Below are positions 26,863 through 63,071 of a stretch of DNA of 64,000 nucleotides, piece after piece. The DNA is from Candidatus Thorarchaeota archaeon (GTDB lineage: Archaea; Asgardarchaeota; Thorarchaeia; Thorarchaeales; Thorarchaeaceae). The position numbers and the translations under genes are program-made. The notes beneath the pieces were generated by a model, which worked only from the letters and a program-made list of their open reading frames with translations, did not search any database and was not told where the DNA came from. Every line of letters begins with the position of its first letter. Position 1 is the first letter of the stretch. Where the stretch lies: contig JAFGAR010000101.1 in assembly GCA_016933575.1 (NCBI GenBank), positions 129,296 to 193,295 of the forward strand. The letters run 5' to 3'.

Positions 26863-27532
26863 GCCTCCGTATCCTTTGCCAGAACATAGTTGGAAAATGT
26901 AAGAAGAATATCGAAGGATATCCAGTGATCTGTGTCCTTCCTCTCTTCAGTTCGTTAAAGATGTCGTCAGCACTAGTGATATCTTGCAACCAAGTTTTAG
27001 CGTGTCCCATCTCCAAAAAGGAATGGCCATCGCTTCCAGCTGTCATTGGTTTATTGAGCCTTTTCGCTAGCCTCTGTGCTCTTTTATTGAAGAGGTTAAT
27101 GATACAGCGTGAATTGATACCCTCTATGAGGTCAACATGTTTGATTATGAGTGCATCGGGCAATCCTCTCCTGATTGCAGCATATTTTCTTAGAGGATCC
27201 ATAGGATGAGGGAGAACAACAAGTCCATTCATATCATGAACATCATCCGAAATCTCTTCGAAAGTTCTGTTTTCAATATGCTCTGTGACGAATAGTCCTA
27301 TGACTTCTCCATAGTCTTTTGATTTGTACTCGCAGGCAGGAATTATGAACCGACCATCCCGTTCAATGACTTTTAGCGTAGCCGCTCTGTGGTGTTCTGT
27401 CGGAGCAACACCTCTTAGTCCCTTCTTCTTCATCATCTTAAAGAGACCATATGGGCTTTGAAAGCCGTCCTTCGAATTGAGAGTATGCATATGCAAATCA
27501 AATGCAGAAAGACGTTCACTCATTGAATTCAC
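26843..27532 (-). CDS. PHP-domain metal-dependent phosphoesterase
   Basis: DLHMHT, TEHH, LPHP, AGSDGH motifs. Start possibly ATG 27523 after GGTGA. Confidence 0.85.
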   Translation of the reverse strand: MNSMSERLSAFDLHMHTLNSKDGFQSPYGLFKMMKKKGLRGVAPTEHHRAATLKVIERDGRFIIPACEYKSKDYGEVIGLFVTEHIENRTFEEISDDVHDMNGLVVLPHPMDPLRKYAAIRRGLPDALIIKHVDLIEGINSRCIINLFNKRAQRLAKRLNKPMTAGSDGHSFLEMGHAKTWLQDITSADDIFNELKRGRTQITGYPSIFFLHFPTMFWQRIRRLAYDSW

Positions 27533-28531
27533 CTAAGGGAAAAGGGGTGGAAATAGAGTTTCCAAATAATCGAGAGCAATTTGGAACAATGATCCTACGA
27601 AATCAAGCACCATCTCCCAGAAGAACAAAGTCCAGGCTAATACCAATAGAAAGAGAATTCCTCCAATGAAAATACCCTTATCTTTGATTGCCAGATGGGG
27701 CTTTCTTCCAACCGGGCTTCCGATGTGAATTAAGTAAACGTATCTTAAGATTAATCCTGCAAGGATTGGAACTGTAAGCATTACAGGTTGTTGTTCCATC
27801 CGCTCTGCAAAGTTATTGTAGCAATAGAGTGTGTAGAATATTACAAACCATGTTGCAGACATAGAAATCCCATGATCAAGTATGGTGTCTGTGTATTGTG
27901 TAAAGACGGGTTTGTGTGTGACAGCATCTTTACCTAAGTACTGCAATTCGTTCTTACGTTTACCAAATCCGAGTACTAGTGCAAAGAAAAACACTCCAAT
28001 GACAAGCCATGATGTGAATGGAATTCTTAGCAGAACTGCTCCGGATATTGCTCTAATTACGAATCCAACAGCAATCGTTACTACATCAATAATTGCCCAT
28101 TTTCTAAGATATGCATTATAGAGTTGTGAAGTAATTATGTATAAGATAACTAAGATAAAGAAAATCCAGTAAAGAATGAAGGAAAGAAAAAGACCTCCTG
28201 CTAGAAGAATAACTGCGAATAATTTTGCTGTACTTCTCTGGATTGCTCCAGAAGGCAATGGTCTATTCCTCTTCTCTGGATGAGCCGCATCTGCTTCTAA
28301 ATCTTGGATATCATTAAGAATATATGTTGCACTTGAAACAGCACAGAAGGCCAAAAATCCTAGAATTAGTGGCAAGTGGAGGGAATAGAATCTTGTGAAA
28401 TCCAGAATTGGTGGAGTTTCAATCCATGGATATACTTGAGGTACTTGATAAAATACGATTGCCAAGAAAACAAGTAAATTCTTGTACCACTGAGCAGGTC
28501 TCATCAATCTGATAAAGTCACTAGCAGCCAT
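27533..28531 (-). CDS. UbiA-family polyprenyl-phosphate phosphoribosyltransferase (DPPR-synthase-like)
   Basis: RPAQWYKNLLVF, YILNDIQDLEADAAHPEKRNRPLPSG, GFVIRAISG and GKRKNEL match the decaprenyl-phosphate phosphoribosyltransferase subfamily. Confidence 0.85.
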   Translation of the reverse strand: MAASDFIRLMRPAQWYKNLLVFLAIVFYQVPQVYPWIETPPILDFTRFYSLHLPLILGFLAFCAVSSATYILNDIQDLEADAAHPEKRNRPLPSGAIQRSTAKLFAVILLAGGLFLSFILYWIFFILVILYIITSQLYNAYLRKWAIIDVVTIAVGFVIRAISGAVLLRIPFTSWLVIGVFFFALVLGFGKRKNELQYLGKDAVTHKPVFTQYTDTILDHGISMSATWFVIFYTLYCYNNFAERMEQQPVMLTVPILAGLILRYVYLIHIGSPVGRKPHLAIKDKGIFIGGILFLLVLAWTLFFWEMVLDFVGSLFQIALDYLETLFPPLFP

Positions 28532-57108: not shown

Positions 57109-57483
57109 ATGGAACATTTGGGCAAGAAGATACTCGGCATCTTATTGATGACTTCTCCATATACATTTCAGAATAGTCATACCTTCTATGATTTGTGCAA
57201 AGCTGCACTGTCGAAGGGATATAGAGTAAAGGTATTCCTCTTTGTGGATGGAGTAAACAATGCAAAATTGAATCAGGACCCGGATCCTGATAGACCGATG
57301 AATGACAAATTCTTGGAACTGGCTAATGAAGGGATTGAGTTTCAAGCATGCGGCCTCTGCACTTCAGCTCGTGGATTTGACCAGCGTGGCGGAGATTTTG
57401 TTGAAGGCATGGAAGTCAGTGGATTAACAGAATTTGCTGAGCAGATAGGCGAGGTTGACAGATTCATAACATTCTCAATTTAG
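57109..57483 (+). CDS. dsrE: DsrE/TusD-like sulfurtransferase
   Basis: TSPY, VFLFVDGV, ACGLCTSARG, SGLTEF. Confidence 0.85.
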   Translation: MEHLGKKILGILLMTSPYTFQNSHTFYDLCKAALSKGYRVKVFLFVDGVNNAKLNQDPDPDRPMNDKFLELANEGIEFQACGLCTSARGFDQRGGDFVEGMEVSGLTEFAEQIGEVDRFITFSI

Positions 57484-57494
57484 GAGTGATAAAG

Positions 57495-57845
57495 ATGGAT
57501 TTTACAGAAAGAAAAGTATTGATTCTGGTGATCAGCAAACCCTTTGGTAAGATAATTGCTGCAGAAGGCTGGCGTGCTGCTGTTGGTATGTTTGGAATGG
57601 ACCATCAATCCCAGATGCTCTTCATTGGTGATGGCGTATATGGTCTAATGAAAGAGCAAGATATCGCACCAATAAGGATGTTTAAGTCGACATTCGAGTC
57701 CTTTGATGGCCGAGTCTGCGTAAGTAAGAAATCTCTGGATGAACGAAAAATCAACAAGAGTGAGATATTTGAAGGTGTCGAGGTTCTAGACGAAGAAAGC
57801 GTTGCCAATGCCTTAGTGGAGAATGAGGTAATTATATCATTCTAA
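57495..57845 (+). CDS. dsrF: DsrF/TusC-like sulfur relay protein
   Basis: KPFG, AEGWRAA, LFIGDGVY, SLDERKI; lies between dsrE and dsrH. Confidence 0.8.
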   Translation: MDFTERKVLILVISKPFGKIIAAEGWRAAVGMFGMDHQSQMLFIGDGVYGLMKEQDIAPIRMFKSTFESFDGRVCVSKKSLDERKINKSEIFEGVEVLDEESVANALVENEVIISF

Positions 57846-57859
57846 GGAGGAAATTTGAA

Positions 57860-58159
57860 ATGAAATATTTGATTTGGTTATCCAACGATTGTGCAAGTGT
57901 TAAGGAAATCGTATCCAGTCTGGCAAGAAAAGAAGTTCAGATTGAGATTCTTCTTCTCCAAGATGGCGTATATTTGGCAGACAGAGGTTGTCCGGAATCA
58001 AGTGAACTAAAGGAACTTGGTCTCAAGGTCCATGCACTCAAAAATCATGTCGAAGAGAGAGGTATCACCGATAGACTTCTAGTAGGTGTGAATCTGATCG
58101 ATTATGAAGATGTCGTAGATCTCATCATGGAAAAATCTGATAAGATAATCTCCTTGTAA
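57860..58159 (+). CDS. dsrH: DsrH/TusB-like sulfur relay protein
   Basis: LLLQDGVY, HVEERGI, IDYEDVVDL; GGAGG RBS. Confidence 0.85.
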   Translation: MKYLIWLSNDCASVKEIVSSLARKEVQIEILLLQDGVYLADRGCPESSELKELGLKVHALKNHVEERGITDRLLVGVNLIDYEDVVDLIMEKSDKIISL

Positions 58160-58170
58160 TAGCAATAGAT

Positions 58171-58206
58171 ATCATTCCTGTTTCGTTTCAGGGATGATTC
58201 TTCTTT
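58171..58206 (+). terminator. Hairpin between convergent dsrH and DUF22 genes
   Basis: ATCATTCCTG-N8-CAGGGATGAT followed by TCTTCTTT. Confidence 0.5.
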
Positions 58207-58207
58207 A

Positions 58208-58624
58208 CTAGATTTTCTTCCCTGGAACAATCAATACTTGACCAAGTAGGTCTCCAGGTAAGACTGAAGCTTTGATTCTAGAACTAAACATTGACATGTT
58301 AGCTGTCCGATCTTCTGAGTACATCTTCATCTCTGTACAACCTATGCATGCTAGGTCACCCATACCATTTGATCCATAGAAGGATTGAATGACCATAGAA
58401 TATGCTGGAATCTTAATCGGTCTAATTGGTACAAGATTGGTTTCGCCAACCTGAAAAGACACTTTCTCTGACGCCACAACAGGTGTGAATCTGACCTTAT
58501 TCCAATCAAGACTAATTATTGATTCTTCTAATCCCCCAACGGAACTTCGCATACGGTCCATTCCTAGACTCTCAAGGTCTTGTCTACAGCTAATGACATA
58601 GATTTTTTCTGACAACTTGTCCAC
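58208..58624 (-). CDS. DUF22 family archaeal protein
   Basis: PVVASE...GET...IRPIKIP...YGSNGMG...PGDLLGQV pattern. Confidence 0.7.
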   Translation of the reverse strand: MDKLSEKIYVISCRQDLESLGMDRMRSSVGGLEESIISLDWNKVRFTPVVASEKVSFQVGETNLVPIRPIKIPAYSMVIQSFYGSNGMGDLACIGCTEMKMYSEDRTANMSMFSSRIKASVLPGDLLGQVLIVPGKKI

Positions 58625-58813: not shown

Positions 58814-59119
58814 ATGAAATTTAGAGGAATGTTAGTGTGCATTCTATTCTCTGTATTGCTATTCTTGAGTACCTTGGGAATAATACCAAATACAGGAAAT
58901 GAAAAACCTTCAATTACGGATGCCTCTATGGTTACTTCCGCGCAATACGATTTTTCGAATCGAAAGAGCCCAATAGATATTCTTGTCCATACAGAATTTG
59001 CTAATCTTTCTGAGAATGGAGAATACGATCTTGTGATGGCTTTGGCACAACGCAATTCGAACCGCAATCGGTTGACTGTTATTCAAAATCAACAAGAATT
59101 AGGCTGGTCTGGAATATAG
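58814..59119 (+). pseudogene. Chimeric ORF: truncated 5' paralog of the downstream surface protein fused in frame to a copy of the small peptide gene
   Basis: RKSPIDILVHTEFANLSENGEY matches RKNDPVSILVYTQYADLSASGEF of 59397..62012. C-terminal NSNRNRLTVIQNQQELGWSGI matches peptide 62444..62569. Confidence 0.6.
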
Positions 59120-59203
59120 AAATATTTCATTTGCTTTCCTAATTGCCACATTTAGTAATGAAAGTATACAAATTAGAATGTGGTCACTCTTAGTAAAAAA
59201 AAA

Positions 59204-59247
59204 CATGAGCGGATTGTAATCTCCTCATGATTCTCTCTTTTTTTTTT
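59204..59247 (+). terminator. CATGAG/CTCATG hairpin plus T tract
   Basis: Stem 59204-59209/59224-59229 followed by a pyrimidine run and long T run; same stem sequence as 62648-62672. Confidence 0.6.
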
Positions 59248-59396
59248 ATATCTTTTATTTTAGCAAAGTTGAAATACGTTGTCTAGAAACTTGATATTGC
59301 GTCGCGCAGTTTGCTTTGAAGATGTTGTGTTTGATATTACTCAATGGCACGCAATTATTATCAAAAAAGCAGATATACCGAATAGGAGATTTAAGT

Positions 59397-62012
59397 ATGA
59401 ATAAAATTAGGATTGGATTTGTAACAGTATTGGCACTGTCACTCTTCTTAAGTCCGACCTTTCTAATTGGAGGCTTCTCTTCAATTACATCAAACCCAGA
59501 TAATTTAAGGCTTGCAGTAAATACTGAGGAAATTTATGGTCAATCAAGGAAGAATGATCCAGTATCAATACTTGTATACACGCAATATGCAGATCTTAGT
59601 GCTTCAGGTGAATTTAAGCATACTATGGATTCCATAGATGCAGAGTATGGTACATCCTATCAGTATGCAAATCTGACTGATTATCATGGACTAGCCGCTG
59701 TCATCAATGAATATGATATTCTACTTATCCTTGAACAAGAAAACGCATATGTATCAAATATGACCGAAGTTGGTCTGGCATGGGCGTCGACTCTTTCAAC
59801 ATTCATTACCAAAGGTGGCATCGTTATTGCAATGGACTGTTGGGGTCCTTTGAATATTCCAGCTGAGCGTCTAGGTATAACGAGCCATATCTATAACTCA
59901 TCAGGTCTCATGTCAATTACTGGTTTTCATGACGAACCGTATACATCAATGACTATCTATGATTTTGATGATGCATTAGCACTGGGTGTGACAACTCCTT
60001 TCTCAACTACAGATGGAGCAATAACCTATGATACAACTGATGGCGTAAAAGTTGCAGGTAGTGCGTCAGGAGCATTAGCTGTTCATAAGATAATTGGAAA
60101 GGGGCACTTGATCCTTCTTGGTTTTGACTTCTATCTTATTGAAATGAATTGTGTCAAAATGCTAGCAAATAGTATTCGACTTCATCACCATGTTGTTGTT
60201 GATGGATCCCATACACAATACATGCACGTAGCTGTAGAACTATACCAATTCGCTGTGAATCTAGCAGCAGAAGGTTTTGCTGTATCTACGATGTCAACAT
60301 TCGATCCAGCGTACCTTGCAGCATGTGATGTATTTGTTATCTCATACTGTACTGATATGTATAATGCAACTGAGGTTAACCAAATCGAGGACTTCGTAAA
60401 TAACGGGGGAGGTCTCTATATTCTGCAAGAATGGAGTGCCTTTGGTGAAGAAATGGATCCTGTTTCTGAGAGATTCAACTATGTTCGTAACAAAACTAGC
60501 TACCTTGCCGACTCAGATGACCATGTTGGAGCAAATGTTGCTTGGGTCATGTTCGATTTGGACAACACGCATAATCATTCTGCAATCTTAGATGCGACTA
60601 GTTTTGAAGTCTATGGAGCTACTATATTTGAAGAGCTTCCTGCCAATGCTTTTCCATTGATTACTGTTGATACTGATGATACTGCTACTATTGGAGGTGA
60701 TTCCAAAAATGGCTATTCATTCGCTGCAGCCTCAACTCATGGAAATGGTCGAGTCATTGTCATAGGTGATGGCAATATGATGGATGGTGTCGATGATATT
60801 GATAGCGATGCTACCACTAATTTCGATGAACAAAATAATGGCTATTTCGCAGTGAGTTGTATTCGATGGTTACTTGCTGCTGGAATTGAAGAAAAGACCA
60901 TTCTCTTCGATGAGTCGCATTCTCCATATGGATTTGTTAATGGAGCTAACCAATACCTAGCATACTTTTTGACCCTAAATGGATACACTGTCCATTGGAT
61001 GGAGAGTTTCTACGGACAACTTCTGGCGCAAGCAGACATACTCTTTGTGATGAGTGGTTCCAGTGCCTACACGCCCACAGAAATAAATCAGATTGTAGAT
61101 TTTGTCAATAATGGAAAGAGTATCTTCCTTATAGGTGACTGGGGTATTTATGGAACTAATATAGCTCCAATTGGTTCAGAGTTTGGTCTCGAGTTAAACA
61201 CGACAACTTCATACTTGGATGATACTGATGATTGGCTGCATGCAGCATCTTATCTTGTATATAATACAAGTAATTTTGCAGACCACCCAATTATGACAGG
61301 AGTGAACAGAATCGAGGTTGACCGAGGTACAGGTTTTAGTGCAGTTGGAACAAGCACTCCACTTGTGCATACCGATACGGATGGAACTGCTTTCTGGCGT
61401 AATATGACATCAGTCAATAATGGACCTGCTAATGGCATTGCCACCTTTGCATCGACTACCTATAACAAAGGTCGTGTGGTTTTCTTCACTGATGTTAACT
61501 TCATTCAAGGAACTGACGCTGATAGTGATGGTGTAATTCAGCTATATGATTCAGATAATGATCGATTTATCTCGAATGCCTTTTACTGGTTGATAGAGAA
61601 TCGAGCTCCTACTGTTGAGCTGACATTCCCGAATGGTGGTGAGGTTCTGAACGGAACTCACTTCATAACTTGGGATGCTATCGATTTCGATAACGATCTA
61701 TTAACATTCGATCTCTATTACAGCGATAACAATGGTTCAGATTGGACTACCTTGGTCATGGACCTTACTCTCTCTGAATATGCTTGGAATACAACAGTTT
61801 ATGACGATGGTAATGGTTACATGATTCGTGTTGTTGTGTCTGATGGAATCGCTACTGATCAGGACGAATCGGATGATTCATTCTCGCTTGATAATTTCGA
61901 ATCTGGTCCTGGTGGTTTCCCACTTGATACAACACTACTGTTACTTATTGCAGCTGCAGCAGGCATAATTATCGTTGTCATTGTAGTCATTATGAAACGT
62001 GGCAAGAAATAG
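59397..62012 (+). CDS. Membrane-anchored surface protein with tandem GATase-like (DUF4350/GldG-IFT52 'GIFT'-like) domains and an Ig-like module
   Basis: AGGAG RBS before ATG 59397, signal peptide. Repeated motifs VVVDGSH/ILFDESH, FVNNGGGLYI/FVNNGKSIFL, GRVIVIGD/GRVVFFTD. PTVELTFPNGGE module, TM plus KRGKK. Confidence 0.8.
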   Translation: MNKIRIGFVTVLALSLFLSPTFLIGGFSSITSNPDNLRLAVNTEEIYGQSRKNDPVSILVYTQYADLSASGEFKHTMDSIDAEYGTSYQYANLTDYHGLAAVINEYDILLILEQENAYVSNMTEVGLAWASTLSTFITKGGIVIAMDCWGPLNIPAERLGITSHIYNSSGLMSITGFHDEPYTSMTIYDFDDALALGVTTPFSTTDGAITYDTTDGVKVAGSASGALAVHKIIGKGHLILLGFDFYLIEMNCVKMLANSIRLHHHVVVDGSHTQYMHVAVELYQFAVNLAAEGFAVSTMSTFDPAYLAACDVFVISYCTDMYNATEVNQIEDFVNNGGGLYILQEWSAFGEEMDPVSERFNYVRNKTSYLADSDDHVGANVAWVMFDLDNTHNHSAILDATSFEVYGATIFEELPANAFPLITVDTDDTATIGGDSKNGYSFAAASTHGNGRVIVIGDGNMMDGVDDIDSDATTNFDEQNNGYFAVSCIRWLLAAGIEEKTILFDESHSPYGFVNGANQYLAYFLTLNGYTVHWMESFYGQLLAQADILFVMSGSSAYTPTEINQIVDFVNNGKSIFLIGDWGIYGTNIAPIGSEFGLELNTTTSYLDDTDDWLHAASYLVYNTSNFADHPIMTGVNRIEVDRGTGFSAVGTSTPLVHTDTDGTAFWRNMTSVNNGPANGIATFASTTYNKGRVVFFTDVNFIQGTDADSDGVIQLYDSDNDRFISNAFYWLIENRAPTVELTFPNGGEVLNGTHFITWDAIDFDNDLLTFDLYYSDNNGSDWTTLVMDLTLSEYAWNTTVYDDGNGYMIRVVVSDGIATDQDESDDSFSLDNFESGPGGFPLDTTLLLLIAAAAGIIIVVIVVIMKRGKK

Positions 62013-62024
62013 AAATACAATATT

Positions 62025-62056
62025 GGGCTCGAATAATCGAGCCCTCACTTCTTTTT
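62025..62056 (+). terminator. Intrinsic-type terminator
   Basis: GGGCTCGA-ATAA-TCGAGCCC followed by TCACTTCTTTTT. Confidence 0.65.
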
Positions 62057-62443
62057 ATGTTGTGTATCATACAGAAAGCTTTTGATTTGAGAATTGATGG
62101 GTAATCACTTTTTAATTTCTAATTCAGTAGTCATTTTCAATGTGCATCTTCAGAATGACCTTAGATTGACATTGAATCAGCTAGATACTCATTATCAATG
62201 TTTATTTTCATTTAATACCACAAACTTGGCAAGGCGATGAAGCCTTATCATGAAACAAAGAATAATGCAAACAGATTCATTTGGGATTCACAAGATCCAA
62301 GACACTAAGCATTATCCAACTAGTTATTTCTGGCCATACCTACATTCCGATTTGGATGAACTCTATAGAGAGAAAAATCAAGTTGAGTTCATCATCATGA
62401 AAAAGGTGTGCCTCACACATTCATCGTGTCAGGAGGTGATATA

Positions 62444-62569
62444 GTGGGTAGACATAATCACTCTAGCAGACACGAACAAAAGAGAAGGAGAAATTCTCAT
62501 CACACTTCGAATAAAAACCGAATGACTGTCCTTAGAGACGAACTGGGTTTAGGTTGGTCCGGTGCTTAG
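62444..62569 (+). CDS. Small basic His/Arg-rich peptide (41 aa): MGRHNHSSRHEQKRRRNSHHTSNKNRMTVLRDELGLGWSGA
   Basis: Strong RBS GGAGGTGA (62432-62439), GTG start, a second diverged copy at 59036-59119 with synonymous substitutions, and a downstream terminator. Below the ORF-track size cutoff. Confidence 0.7.
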   Translation: MGRHNHSSRHEQKRRRNSHHTSNKNRMTVLRDELGLGWSGA

Positions 62570-62575
62570 TTTATC

Positions 62576-62679
62576 TCCGAGTGCCTTGATATACATTGGT
62601 TCTTATTCACCATGAATAGAACACCAAGGTCTTCGGAACAGAGAAGGCATGAGCTACTTTGATTATCTCATGCTTTTTT
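62576..62679 (+). terminator. Long 3' hairpin followed by a CATGAG/CTCATG terminator hairpin and T tract
   Basis: Nested stems TCCGA/TCGGA, GCCTTG/CAAGGT, GTTC/GAAC, TATTCA/TGAATA, then AAGGCATGAG-N13-CTCATGCTTT and a T run. Confidence 0.55.
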
Positions 62680-62798: not shown

Positions 62799-63071
62799 TC
62801 ATAGATCTTCATCATTGCGTTTGTATGATTTGTGAGTATCACTCTTTGCTCTTTCTACTCCAAGCCCGACTGGGAAAGGTTTGGTTACGCCCCCAAGTGA
62901 TTGACCTGAGTATGAATAATCGTACCCTCTTGCTCCACCTAGTCCTTCTACTTCTTTCTCTGATGGTCGAGTTAACACAACTCTACCCGAAGGACGTGAT
63001 TTACCAAAAGAACATGCTGCACAAAGCATCAAAAATGTAAATGCAATTATGAAACCAATCAATTCGATCAT
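62799..63071 (-). CDS. Small single-pass membrane protein
   Basis: N-terminal TM followed by a polar tail. Confidence 0.55.
   Translation of the reverse strand: MIELIGFIIAFTFLMLCAACSFGKSRPSGRVVLTRPSEKEVEGLGGARGYDYSYSGQSLGGVTKPFPVGLGVERAKSDTHKSYKRNDEDL

Follow-up and report, generated by a model that had tools for sequence, protein, structure and literature searches.

The microprotein gene and its family

We analyzed a 64,000-nucleotide (nt) stretch of contig JAFGAR010000101.1 from a Candidatus Thorarchaeota archaeon (hereafter, the window), in which a small microprotein gene is preceded by a promoter, a leader motif, and an upstream open reading frame (uORF), and is followed by RNA hairpins. 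The microprotein gene lies at 62444..62569 on the forward strand, begins with GTG, and spans 41 codons. Its product of 41 amino acids (aa) has a net charge of +6, an N-terminal GRHN, and a C-terminal D-x-L-x-L-G-W-S-G, and is absent from the called proteins. The Shine-Dalgarno sequence (SD), GGAGGTGA, is located at 62432-62439, in agreement with the ribosome-binding site and reading frame proposed in an initial annotation of this DNA. The spacer from SD to start was the same in all 22 loci compared, and equals the peak spacing of the genome; the 3′ end of the 16S rRNA is missing from this assembly.

Distinct loci with the full motif numbered 23, collected from relatives, GTDB contigs, metagenomes, and protein collections. 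The encoded peptides are 36–52 aa long, hydrophilic (grand average of hydropathy −0.7 to −1.9), and basic (net +4 to +10), with a shared layout of conserved N-terminal GRHN motif, variable basic linker, and a C-terminal motif that reads strand-Asp-x-Leu-x-x-Gly-Trp-[SAT]-Gly-x-stop. The invariant residues are M, S7, D, G, W, and G, and the last 15 residues carry most of the conservation, at a fixed distance from the stop. For the two main subfamilies, the ratio of nonsynonymous to synonymous substitution rates (dN/dS) was 0.12 and 0.17; two other genera gave 0.38 and 0.04. The earlier proposal of a real microprotein family under selection is thus borne out by 23 loci and purifying values of 0.04–0.38, and the search it suggested for homologs across Asgard genomes did find them with the frame kept, only within the taxonomic family of the window. 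The gene at 62444-62569 encodes a real microprotein of a so far undescribed family; neither it nor the surrounding unit matched Pfam, NCBIfam, PDB, ESM Atlas, or Rfam (the last at gathering score), and our literature search found no paper on it. A low-confidence AlphaFold model showed no stable fold (mean predicted local distance difference test score 61, predicted template modeling score 0.13), and the basic peptide is predicted to be disordered.

Carriers made up 18 of the 86 genomes searched from that taxonomic family, spread over seven genera, and every carrier falls within it. The 12 GTDB matches were titled Thorarchaeota, Promethearchaeota, or uncultured archaeon. There was no credible match in 314 other genomes of the Asgard phylum, where the single match was internal to a long frame; some of the searched genomes are incomplete, so absence there is not proven. 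Weak hidden Markov model matches (L010, L012, L013, L016, and L063–L067) were inspected and rejected as chance. In the tree, members from genus g10 group together, and the family is mostly single copy per genome. One member (L041:5385-5540:-) has lost its stop and carries 14 extra residues beyond the GW motif, with an Sm-like gene upstream. Genome G010 (L070, L088) holds both microprotein subfamilies and two DUF22 loci in different gene orders; it is probably a mixed bin and, at 7% contamination, was left out as proof that subfamilies co-occur.

Two further candidate relatives were discarded. A poxvirus poly(A) polymerase match to the microprotein (E value 0.7) was rejected as chance, as was the C-terminus of uL13 from genome G007 (L032:1141-1590:+; HHalign probability 15%), in which the Val-x5-Leu-Gly-Trp spacing is the same as in the microprotein.

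The leader, the uORF, and a predicted hidden start

An archaeal B recognition element/TATA box was identified at 62194..62206 (+), with TTTATT at 62201-62206. A TATA-like hexamer precedes an AGGCGA motif by 24–26 nt in 22 of 22 loci, and a position weight matrix placed this promoter site top in the genome, at 34.7 bits vs 17.5 for the next. With the transcription start site inferred from TATA spacing, the predicted transcript 5′ end, AGGCGA, and a 5-bp hairpin (AAGGC/GCCTT; z = −2.7) occupy 62231..62246 (+). AGGCGA was invariant in all 21 aligned leaders, and the 5′ hairpin is missing in subfamily B. The unit is presumably transcribed from this promoter; two RNA runs from the same study yielded no contig on the stretch, which weighs neither way. 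Elsewhere in the genome, AGGCGA acts like a variant SD at a spacing of 4–6 nt; within the unit, it lies 10–12 nt from the uORF AUG and, in subfamily A, inside the hairpin. We rejected the idea that the leader marks a regulon, as it has one site in this genome and a relaxed pattern occurs only at background level.

The uORF, at 62250..62444 (+), has 64 codons, the last of which, TAG, shares 1 nt with the GTG of the microprotein gene. ATGA follows the first base of AGGCGA by 16–18 nt in 22/22 loci. From there, the frame stays open for 48–72 codons at all loci. Depending on the locus, it takes any of the three possible phases with respect to the microprotein gene, and at 20 of 22 loci its end falls −4 to +14 nt from the start of that gene (21 of 23 when L062 is included). 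By shuffling, the chance of the uORF staying open was 0.006–0.16 per locus, whereas stops occur at the expected level in the two alternative frames. L062 is a divergent locus found later and served as a test outside the set used to define the uORF pattern; AGGCGA is gone there, but the uORF persists, with 59 codons and a stop/start overlap of 4 nt. Across subfamilies, the uORF products share no residue pattern, length, hydrophobicity, or charge (−3 to +7), and their dN/dS values were 0.77, 0.63, and 0.50, with 0.39 for the closest pair.

There was no run of one regulatory codon in the uORFs, the top enrichment being Phe at 1.65-fold among related sequences, and we therefore rejected an amino-acid-sensing uORF of the trpL or polycysteine kind. 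Tyr (0.44×) and Pro (0.65×) codons are depleted in the uORFs of all loci, and a TTCG/ATCG motif sits in the uORF frame about 30 nt before the microprotein start. At two loci, L030 and L031, the uORF stops 49 nt before the start, and a 12-codon ORF begins 6 nt later and ends in the SD, as if coupling were relayed. We also noted a possible near-leaderless second frame, uORF1, of 23 codons at 62237..62308 (+), out of frame with the main uORF. At 20 of 22 loci, an ATG or TTG stands at +5 to +7 of AGGCGA; the position of the stop varies widely, and uORF1 may be a by-product of that motif.

At the junction with the microprotein gene, a predicted hairpin at 62424..62475 (+) buries the SD and start by pairing with the first codons (−17.7 kcal/mol, z = −3.8). 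Predicted folding placed SD and start within helices at every locus. The mean energy to open the start region was 16.6 kcal/mol vs 11.2 ± 3.6 for 188 SD-led starts of this genome, and the locus in the window reached the 97th percentile of such starts. Twenty of 22 loci reached the 79th percentile or higher; only the two loci with a uORF stop 49 nt early fell short, and folding them with the full leader raised their opening energy to 8–14 kcal/mol. Folding with a ribosome placed on the uORF stop was given no weight as evidence, because its footprint covers the start in any case. Subfamily A hides its start in a local hairpin with the first codons, in which two of 16 pairs are compensatory (consensus of nine sequences). 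As this hairpin uses the first codons, it partly explains the N-terminal conservation of the peptide. In subfamily B and three other genera, the start is instead paired with an anti-start strand that lies upstream, within the uORF; five of 17 pairs are compensatory. That two different folds lead to one outcome, a hidden start, supports a function for it. The initial annotation had recognized neither the conserved promoter nor the uORF nor the concealment of the start.

Downstream of the gene, a long hairpin (62576-62637) and a terminator-type hairpin with U tract (62641-62679) together occupy 62576..62679 (+) and fold better than shuffles (z = −4.6). Nearly all loci have strong 3′ hairpins of non-conserved sequence, CATGAG/CTCATG being confined to part of one subfamily. 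Of the “conserved 3′ layout” proposed earlier, the terminator-type hairpin plus U tract therefore holds, while its sequence is not kept family-wide.

Genus g10 carries a second, 51-aa paralog (L122:2567-2719:-, L123:2247-2399:+, L124:2630-2782:-) that keeps the promoter, AGGCGA leader, hidden SD, and N-terminal motif, lacks the C-terminal GW motif, and has three strong 3′ hairpins. The other g10 paralog keeps the C-terminal motif and lacks the N-terminal His. With the motifs split between two paralogs, the two ends of the microprotein look separable. In two genomes, the 51-aa paralog is preceded by two MoaD/ThiS-like genes.

A chimeric remnant and the genomic neighborhood

The window contains a second sequence related to the microprotein, in the ORF at 58814-59119. 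The last 21 residues of both copies align without gaps, with 11 identical and the TAG stops aligned, and tblastn with one copy against the genome recovers the other at E = 2e-4; no third copy was found by tblastn in the 3.47-Mb genome. Codons differ synonymously at seven of the 11 identical residues. Both copies are followed by a long hairpin and then a CATGAG...CTCATG hairpin with U tract, which begins 79 nt (62648) past the stop of the intact copy and 85 nt (59204) past that of the other, whose hairpins and U tract at 59145..59247 (+) align with the 3′ region of the intact copy and also fold better than shuffles (z = −2.4). The shared residues, synonymous codon differences, aligned stops, and paired 3′ hairpins had been reported in the initial annotation and were confirmed.

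The upstream copy itself is nonetheless no second working gene. Positions 58814..59047 (+) encode the truncated N-terminus of a GIFT-like surface-protein paralog, a signal peptide plus about 50 aa, which matches the 871-aa GIFT protein encoded downstream at 40% across a span of 35 aa; residues 1–76 of the ORF match DUF22-adjacent GIFT paralogs in three relatives at E = 1e-12. Family homology begins only at about 59048, and 59048..59119 (+), in frame with the GIFT fragment, is the remnant 3′ half of a second microprotein gene. From 59048, it matches the metagenomic member L055 at 59 of 72 nt (82%) and 18 of 24 codons; the two window copies share only 45 of 72 nt and are therefore old paralogs. 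In the remnant, the invariant Asp is replaced by Asn, and it has neither a start of its own nor a family-type promoter, uORF, or SD. No homolog of similar length combining a GIFT N-terminus with a microprotein C-terminus was found in other proteins. Misassembly is unlikely, as one Logan contig from the probable source run covers the junction with zero differences. ORF 58814-59119 is thus a chimeric remnant unique to this genome, so that the “duplication” proposed earlier stands as two homologous copies, the upstream one a GIFT/microprotein chimera. The simplest history would be an arrangement GIFT1-unit1-GIFT2-unit2, followed by a deletion from inside GIFT1 into microprotein 1.

Between the two copies, and outside the unit, lies the GIFT/DUF4350-domain surface-protein gene at 59397..62012 (+; 871 aa; Pfam PF14258, PF23355), which adjoins the microprotein gene only in this genome and G017. 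Co-occurrence with this gene or with a nearby radical SAM gene had been suggested as a check; neither is kept beside the family loci generally. Downstream genes differ between loci and are often convergent, and no neighbor is conserved across loci as a candidate partner. With no conserved downstream gene and a terminator, the peptide reads as the output of the unit and not as an attenuator; a cis-acting leader or arrest peptide was rejected because no conserved co-directional gene follows it.

Several further features were noted. The window at 57109-58624 has dsrE/dsrF/dsrH-like sulfur-relay genes beside DUF22. In most relatives, DUF22 stands behind dsrH and is co-directional; it is inverted in the sub-lineage of the window, and where it is inverted, the microprotein unit or a GIFT gene sits divergently. 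Between the unit and the radical SAM gene lies a 90-aa ORF at 62799-63071 (-); it has a hydrophobic segment near the N-terminus and matched nothing in Pfam or NCBIfam. In this genome (G000:C139), an unannotated ORF of ~70 codons lies between a TFB gene and a KamA-like gene at 26932-27864 (-); its leader has neither AGGCGA nor GGAGGTG, and it seems to be a different family.

Proposed gating and alternative explanations

We propose the following mechanism. The TATA promoter would drive an mRNA of about 450 nt in which the SD and start of the microprotein are folded into a helix. A ribosome would initiate at the uORF AUG, 16–18 nt from the 5′ end, translate 48–72 codons to make a product irrelevant in itself, melt the helix, and terminate on the microprotein start, with the microprotein then made by termination-reinitiation or by fresh SD binding. 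Output would be set at the weak start of the uORF, with its AGGCGA motif, as mok gates hok. Translational coupling from uORF to microprotein is, in our judgment, quite probable, and the architecture as a whole, a real protein with uORF gating, is likely. The peptide, kept under tight repression, would be a trans-acting effector of stress or dormancy that targets RNA or ribosomes and folds upon binding. We suggest this reading because the peptide is basic and disordered, ends in a short motif, and is doubly repressed; the RNA- or ribosome-binding role raised in the initial annotation is still the best guess, though a tentative one.

Elements of this scheme are known from other systems. In mok-hok of plasmid R1, translation of a leader ORF opens the hidden start of a small protein (PMC8309996). 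The likeness is control at the start of the leader ORF and a hidden start for the small protein; here, however, no antisense promoter or 5′-3′ fold-back was found, and the product is basic and hydrophilic, encoded on the chromosome behind an archaeal promoter, whereas that of mok-hok is a membrane helix. In Haloferax, coupling is strict where stop and start overlap in this way (PMC6728339). RNA unfolding by an upstream ribosome is a recognized route, uORFs may only deliver ribosomes (PMC12548453), and coupling uORFs are known in Sinorhizobium (PMC13285730). The overlapping pairs of Haloferax and Escherichia coli and those of Sinorhizobium resemble the unit in their 1-nt or 4-nt overlaps or very short gaps and in an SD inside the upstream ORF. 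The unit differs from them in an upstream ORF of nearly free sequence that is conserved across genera, a conserved occluding structure and 5′ motif, and an Asgard host.

On the side of the peptide, E. coli Sra/S22 and egg Dap1 are small and basic and associate with ribosomes or act in hibernation. Archaeal hibernation factors such as SriB have disordered extensions that fold on the ribosome (PMC13454478); Sri homologs have 100–500 aa. The microprotein is likewise short, basic, and disordered with a short conserved motif; it has no sequence similarity to Sra/S22, Dap1, or SriB, nor to known ribosomal proteins or hibernation factors in Pfam, NCBIfam, and PDB.

A number of observations weigh against the proposal. 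With dN/dS values under 1, the uORFs may experience weak selection at the protein level; many helix pairs cannot vary because they overlap the SD and coding sequence, which leaves covariation support thin; a conserved long uORF is missing from the 51-aa g10 paralog; and counts of loci overstate their independence, since the loci are related to one another. Moreover, about 80% of the genomes searched in the taxonomic family have no microprotein, and it is therefore not a core ribosomal part.

One alternative is an ordinary two-gene operon, with the upstream ORF a fast-evolving functional protein and coupling only balancing the products. The dN/dS of 0.5–0.77 (0.39 for the closest pair) fits this, and one uORF was called by the JGI gene caller, but the lack of any shared property among uORF products across subfamilies, and the coincidence of their few recurring residues with the anti-start helix and SD, make an operon of this sort rather unlikely. 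We gave similarly little credence to an archaeal module like type I toxin-antitoxin systems, comprising a cytosolic toxin, the uORF as mok equivalent, and an antisense RNA, perhaps trans-encoded, blocking the uORF start. The layout is that of mok-hok (PMC8309996), the SD is hidden, computation predicts a leader ORF coupled to a small ORF with sequestered start, and patchy presence, many different neighborhoods, and a decayed extra copy in this genome would all suit such a module. However, scanning 22 loci from the 5′ end as far as 200 nt beyond the stop revealed no conserved minus-strand TATA (an antisense RNA may be encoded in trans), pairing between the first 30 nt and the 3′ untranslated region was inconsistent (0.00–0.62, and 0.02 at this locus), and the peptide is hydrophilic with no membrane helix. 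The family is also mostly single copy, its g10 members group in the tree, and no viral contig matched the DNA pattern of the N-terminus, the additional matches of which were unrelated. Membership in the type I class proper was rejected for want of an antisense promoter, fold-back, or membrane helix.

The remaining alternatives concern what the peptide does. It is possible, though we do not favor it, that the peptide is a short-linear-motif regulator whose C-terminal strand (hydrophobic-x-hydrophobic-hydrophobic-x-Asp) and GW motif dock on a protein by β-strand addition, with the basic part as a tether. Conservation focused on the last 15 residues and the split of N- and C-terminal motifs over two g10 paralogs speak for docking; the absence of a conserved neighbor as partner and the weakness of the uL13 match (HHalign probability 15%) speak against it. 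A GW/WG Argonaute hook in particular was rejected, as Argonaute (Piwi) occurs in three of 86 genomes, none a carrier. The Met-less N-terminus Gly-Arg-His, with extra His in subfamily A, could form an amino-terminal copper and nickel (ATCUN) site, which is defined by a free N-terminal Xaa-Xaa-His (PMC7701195), and His is at position 3 after predicted Met removal in 18 of 21 aligned members. Yet it is absent from three g10 members, the N-terminal codons are also held by the SD-hiding hairpin, and there are no metal-related neighbors; total His ranges from 0 to 6, and members with 0–1 His weaken the metal-binding role raised in the initial annotation. We regard it as improbable. The same annotation had linked the peptide speculatively to the radical SAM gene, as a ribosomally synthesized and post-translationally modified peptide (RiPP). 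That gene does flank the subfamily-A loci, but it is convergent and beside no other subfamily, its enzyme scores at most 52 bits against NCBIfam cut-offs of 180–775, including RiPP-maturase models, and the loci share no conserved gene for a protease, a transporter, or a second tailoring enzyme. A RiPP precursor is highly implausible.

Returning to uORF gating of an RNA- or ribosome-directed peptide, a more elaborate version would be a two-tier switch, in which uORF1 competes with, or hands ribosomes to, the coupling uORF, so that peptide production would follow the initiation state of the cell, and the peptide binds and silences ribosomes. We hold this to be a long shot; if true, the lineage closest to eukaryotes would have a prokaryotic equivalent of the translational stress control typified by GCN4/ATF4.

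SD sequences are reported to be rare in Lokiarchaea (PMC12993045); in contrast, this unit uses a perfect but hidden SD. The uORF is kept for its openness and end point and not for its sequence, over seven genera and two occluding folds, and this pattern of conservation offers strong evidence from nature that archaea use translational coupling for regulation. Repression this tight points to a product of high potency, which makes the peptide a good candidate for a new effector of translation or dormancy. While the gating architecture is of a kind known from bacteria, the protein family is undescribed, and a family with no described relative under such gating offers a compact model of translation control in Asgard archaea.

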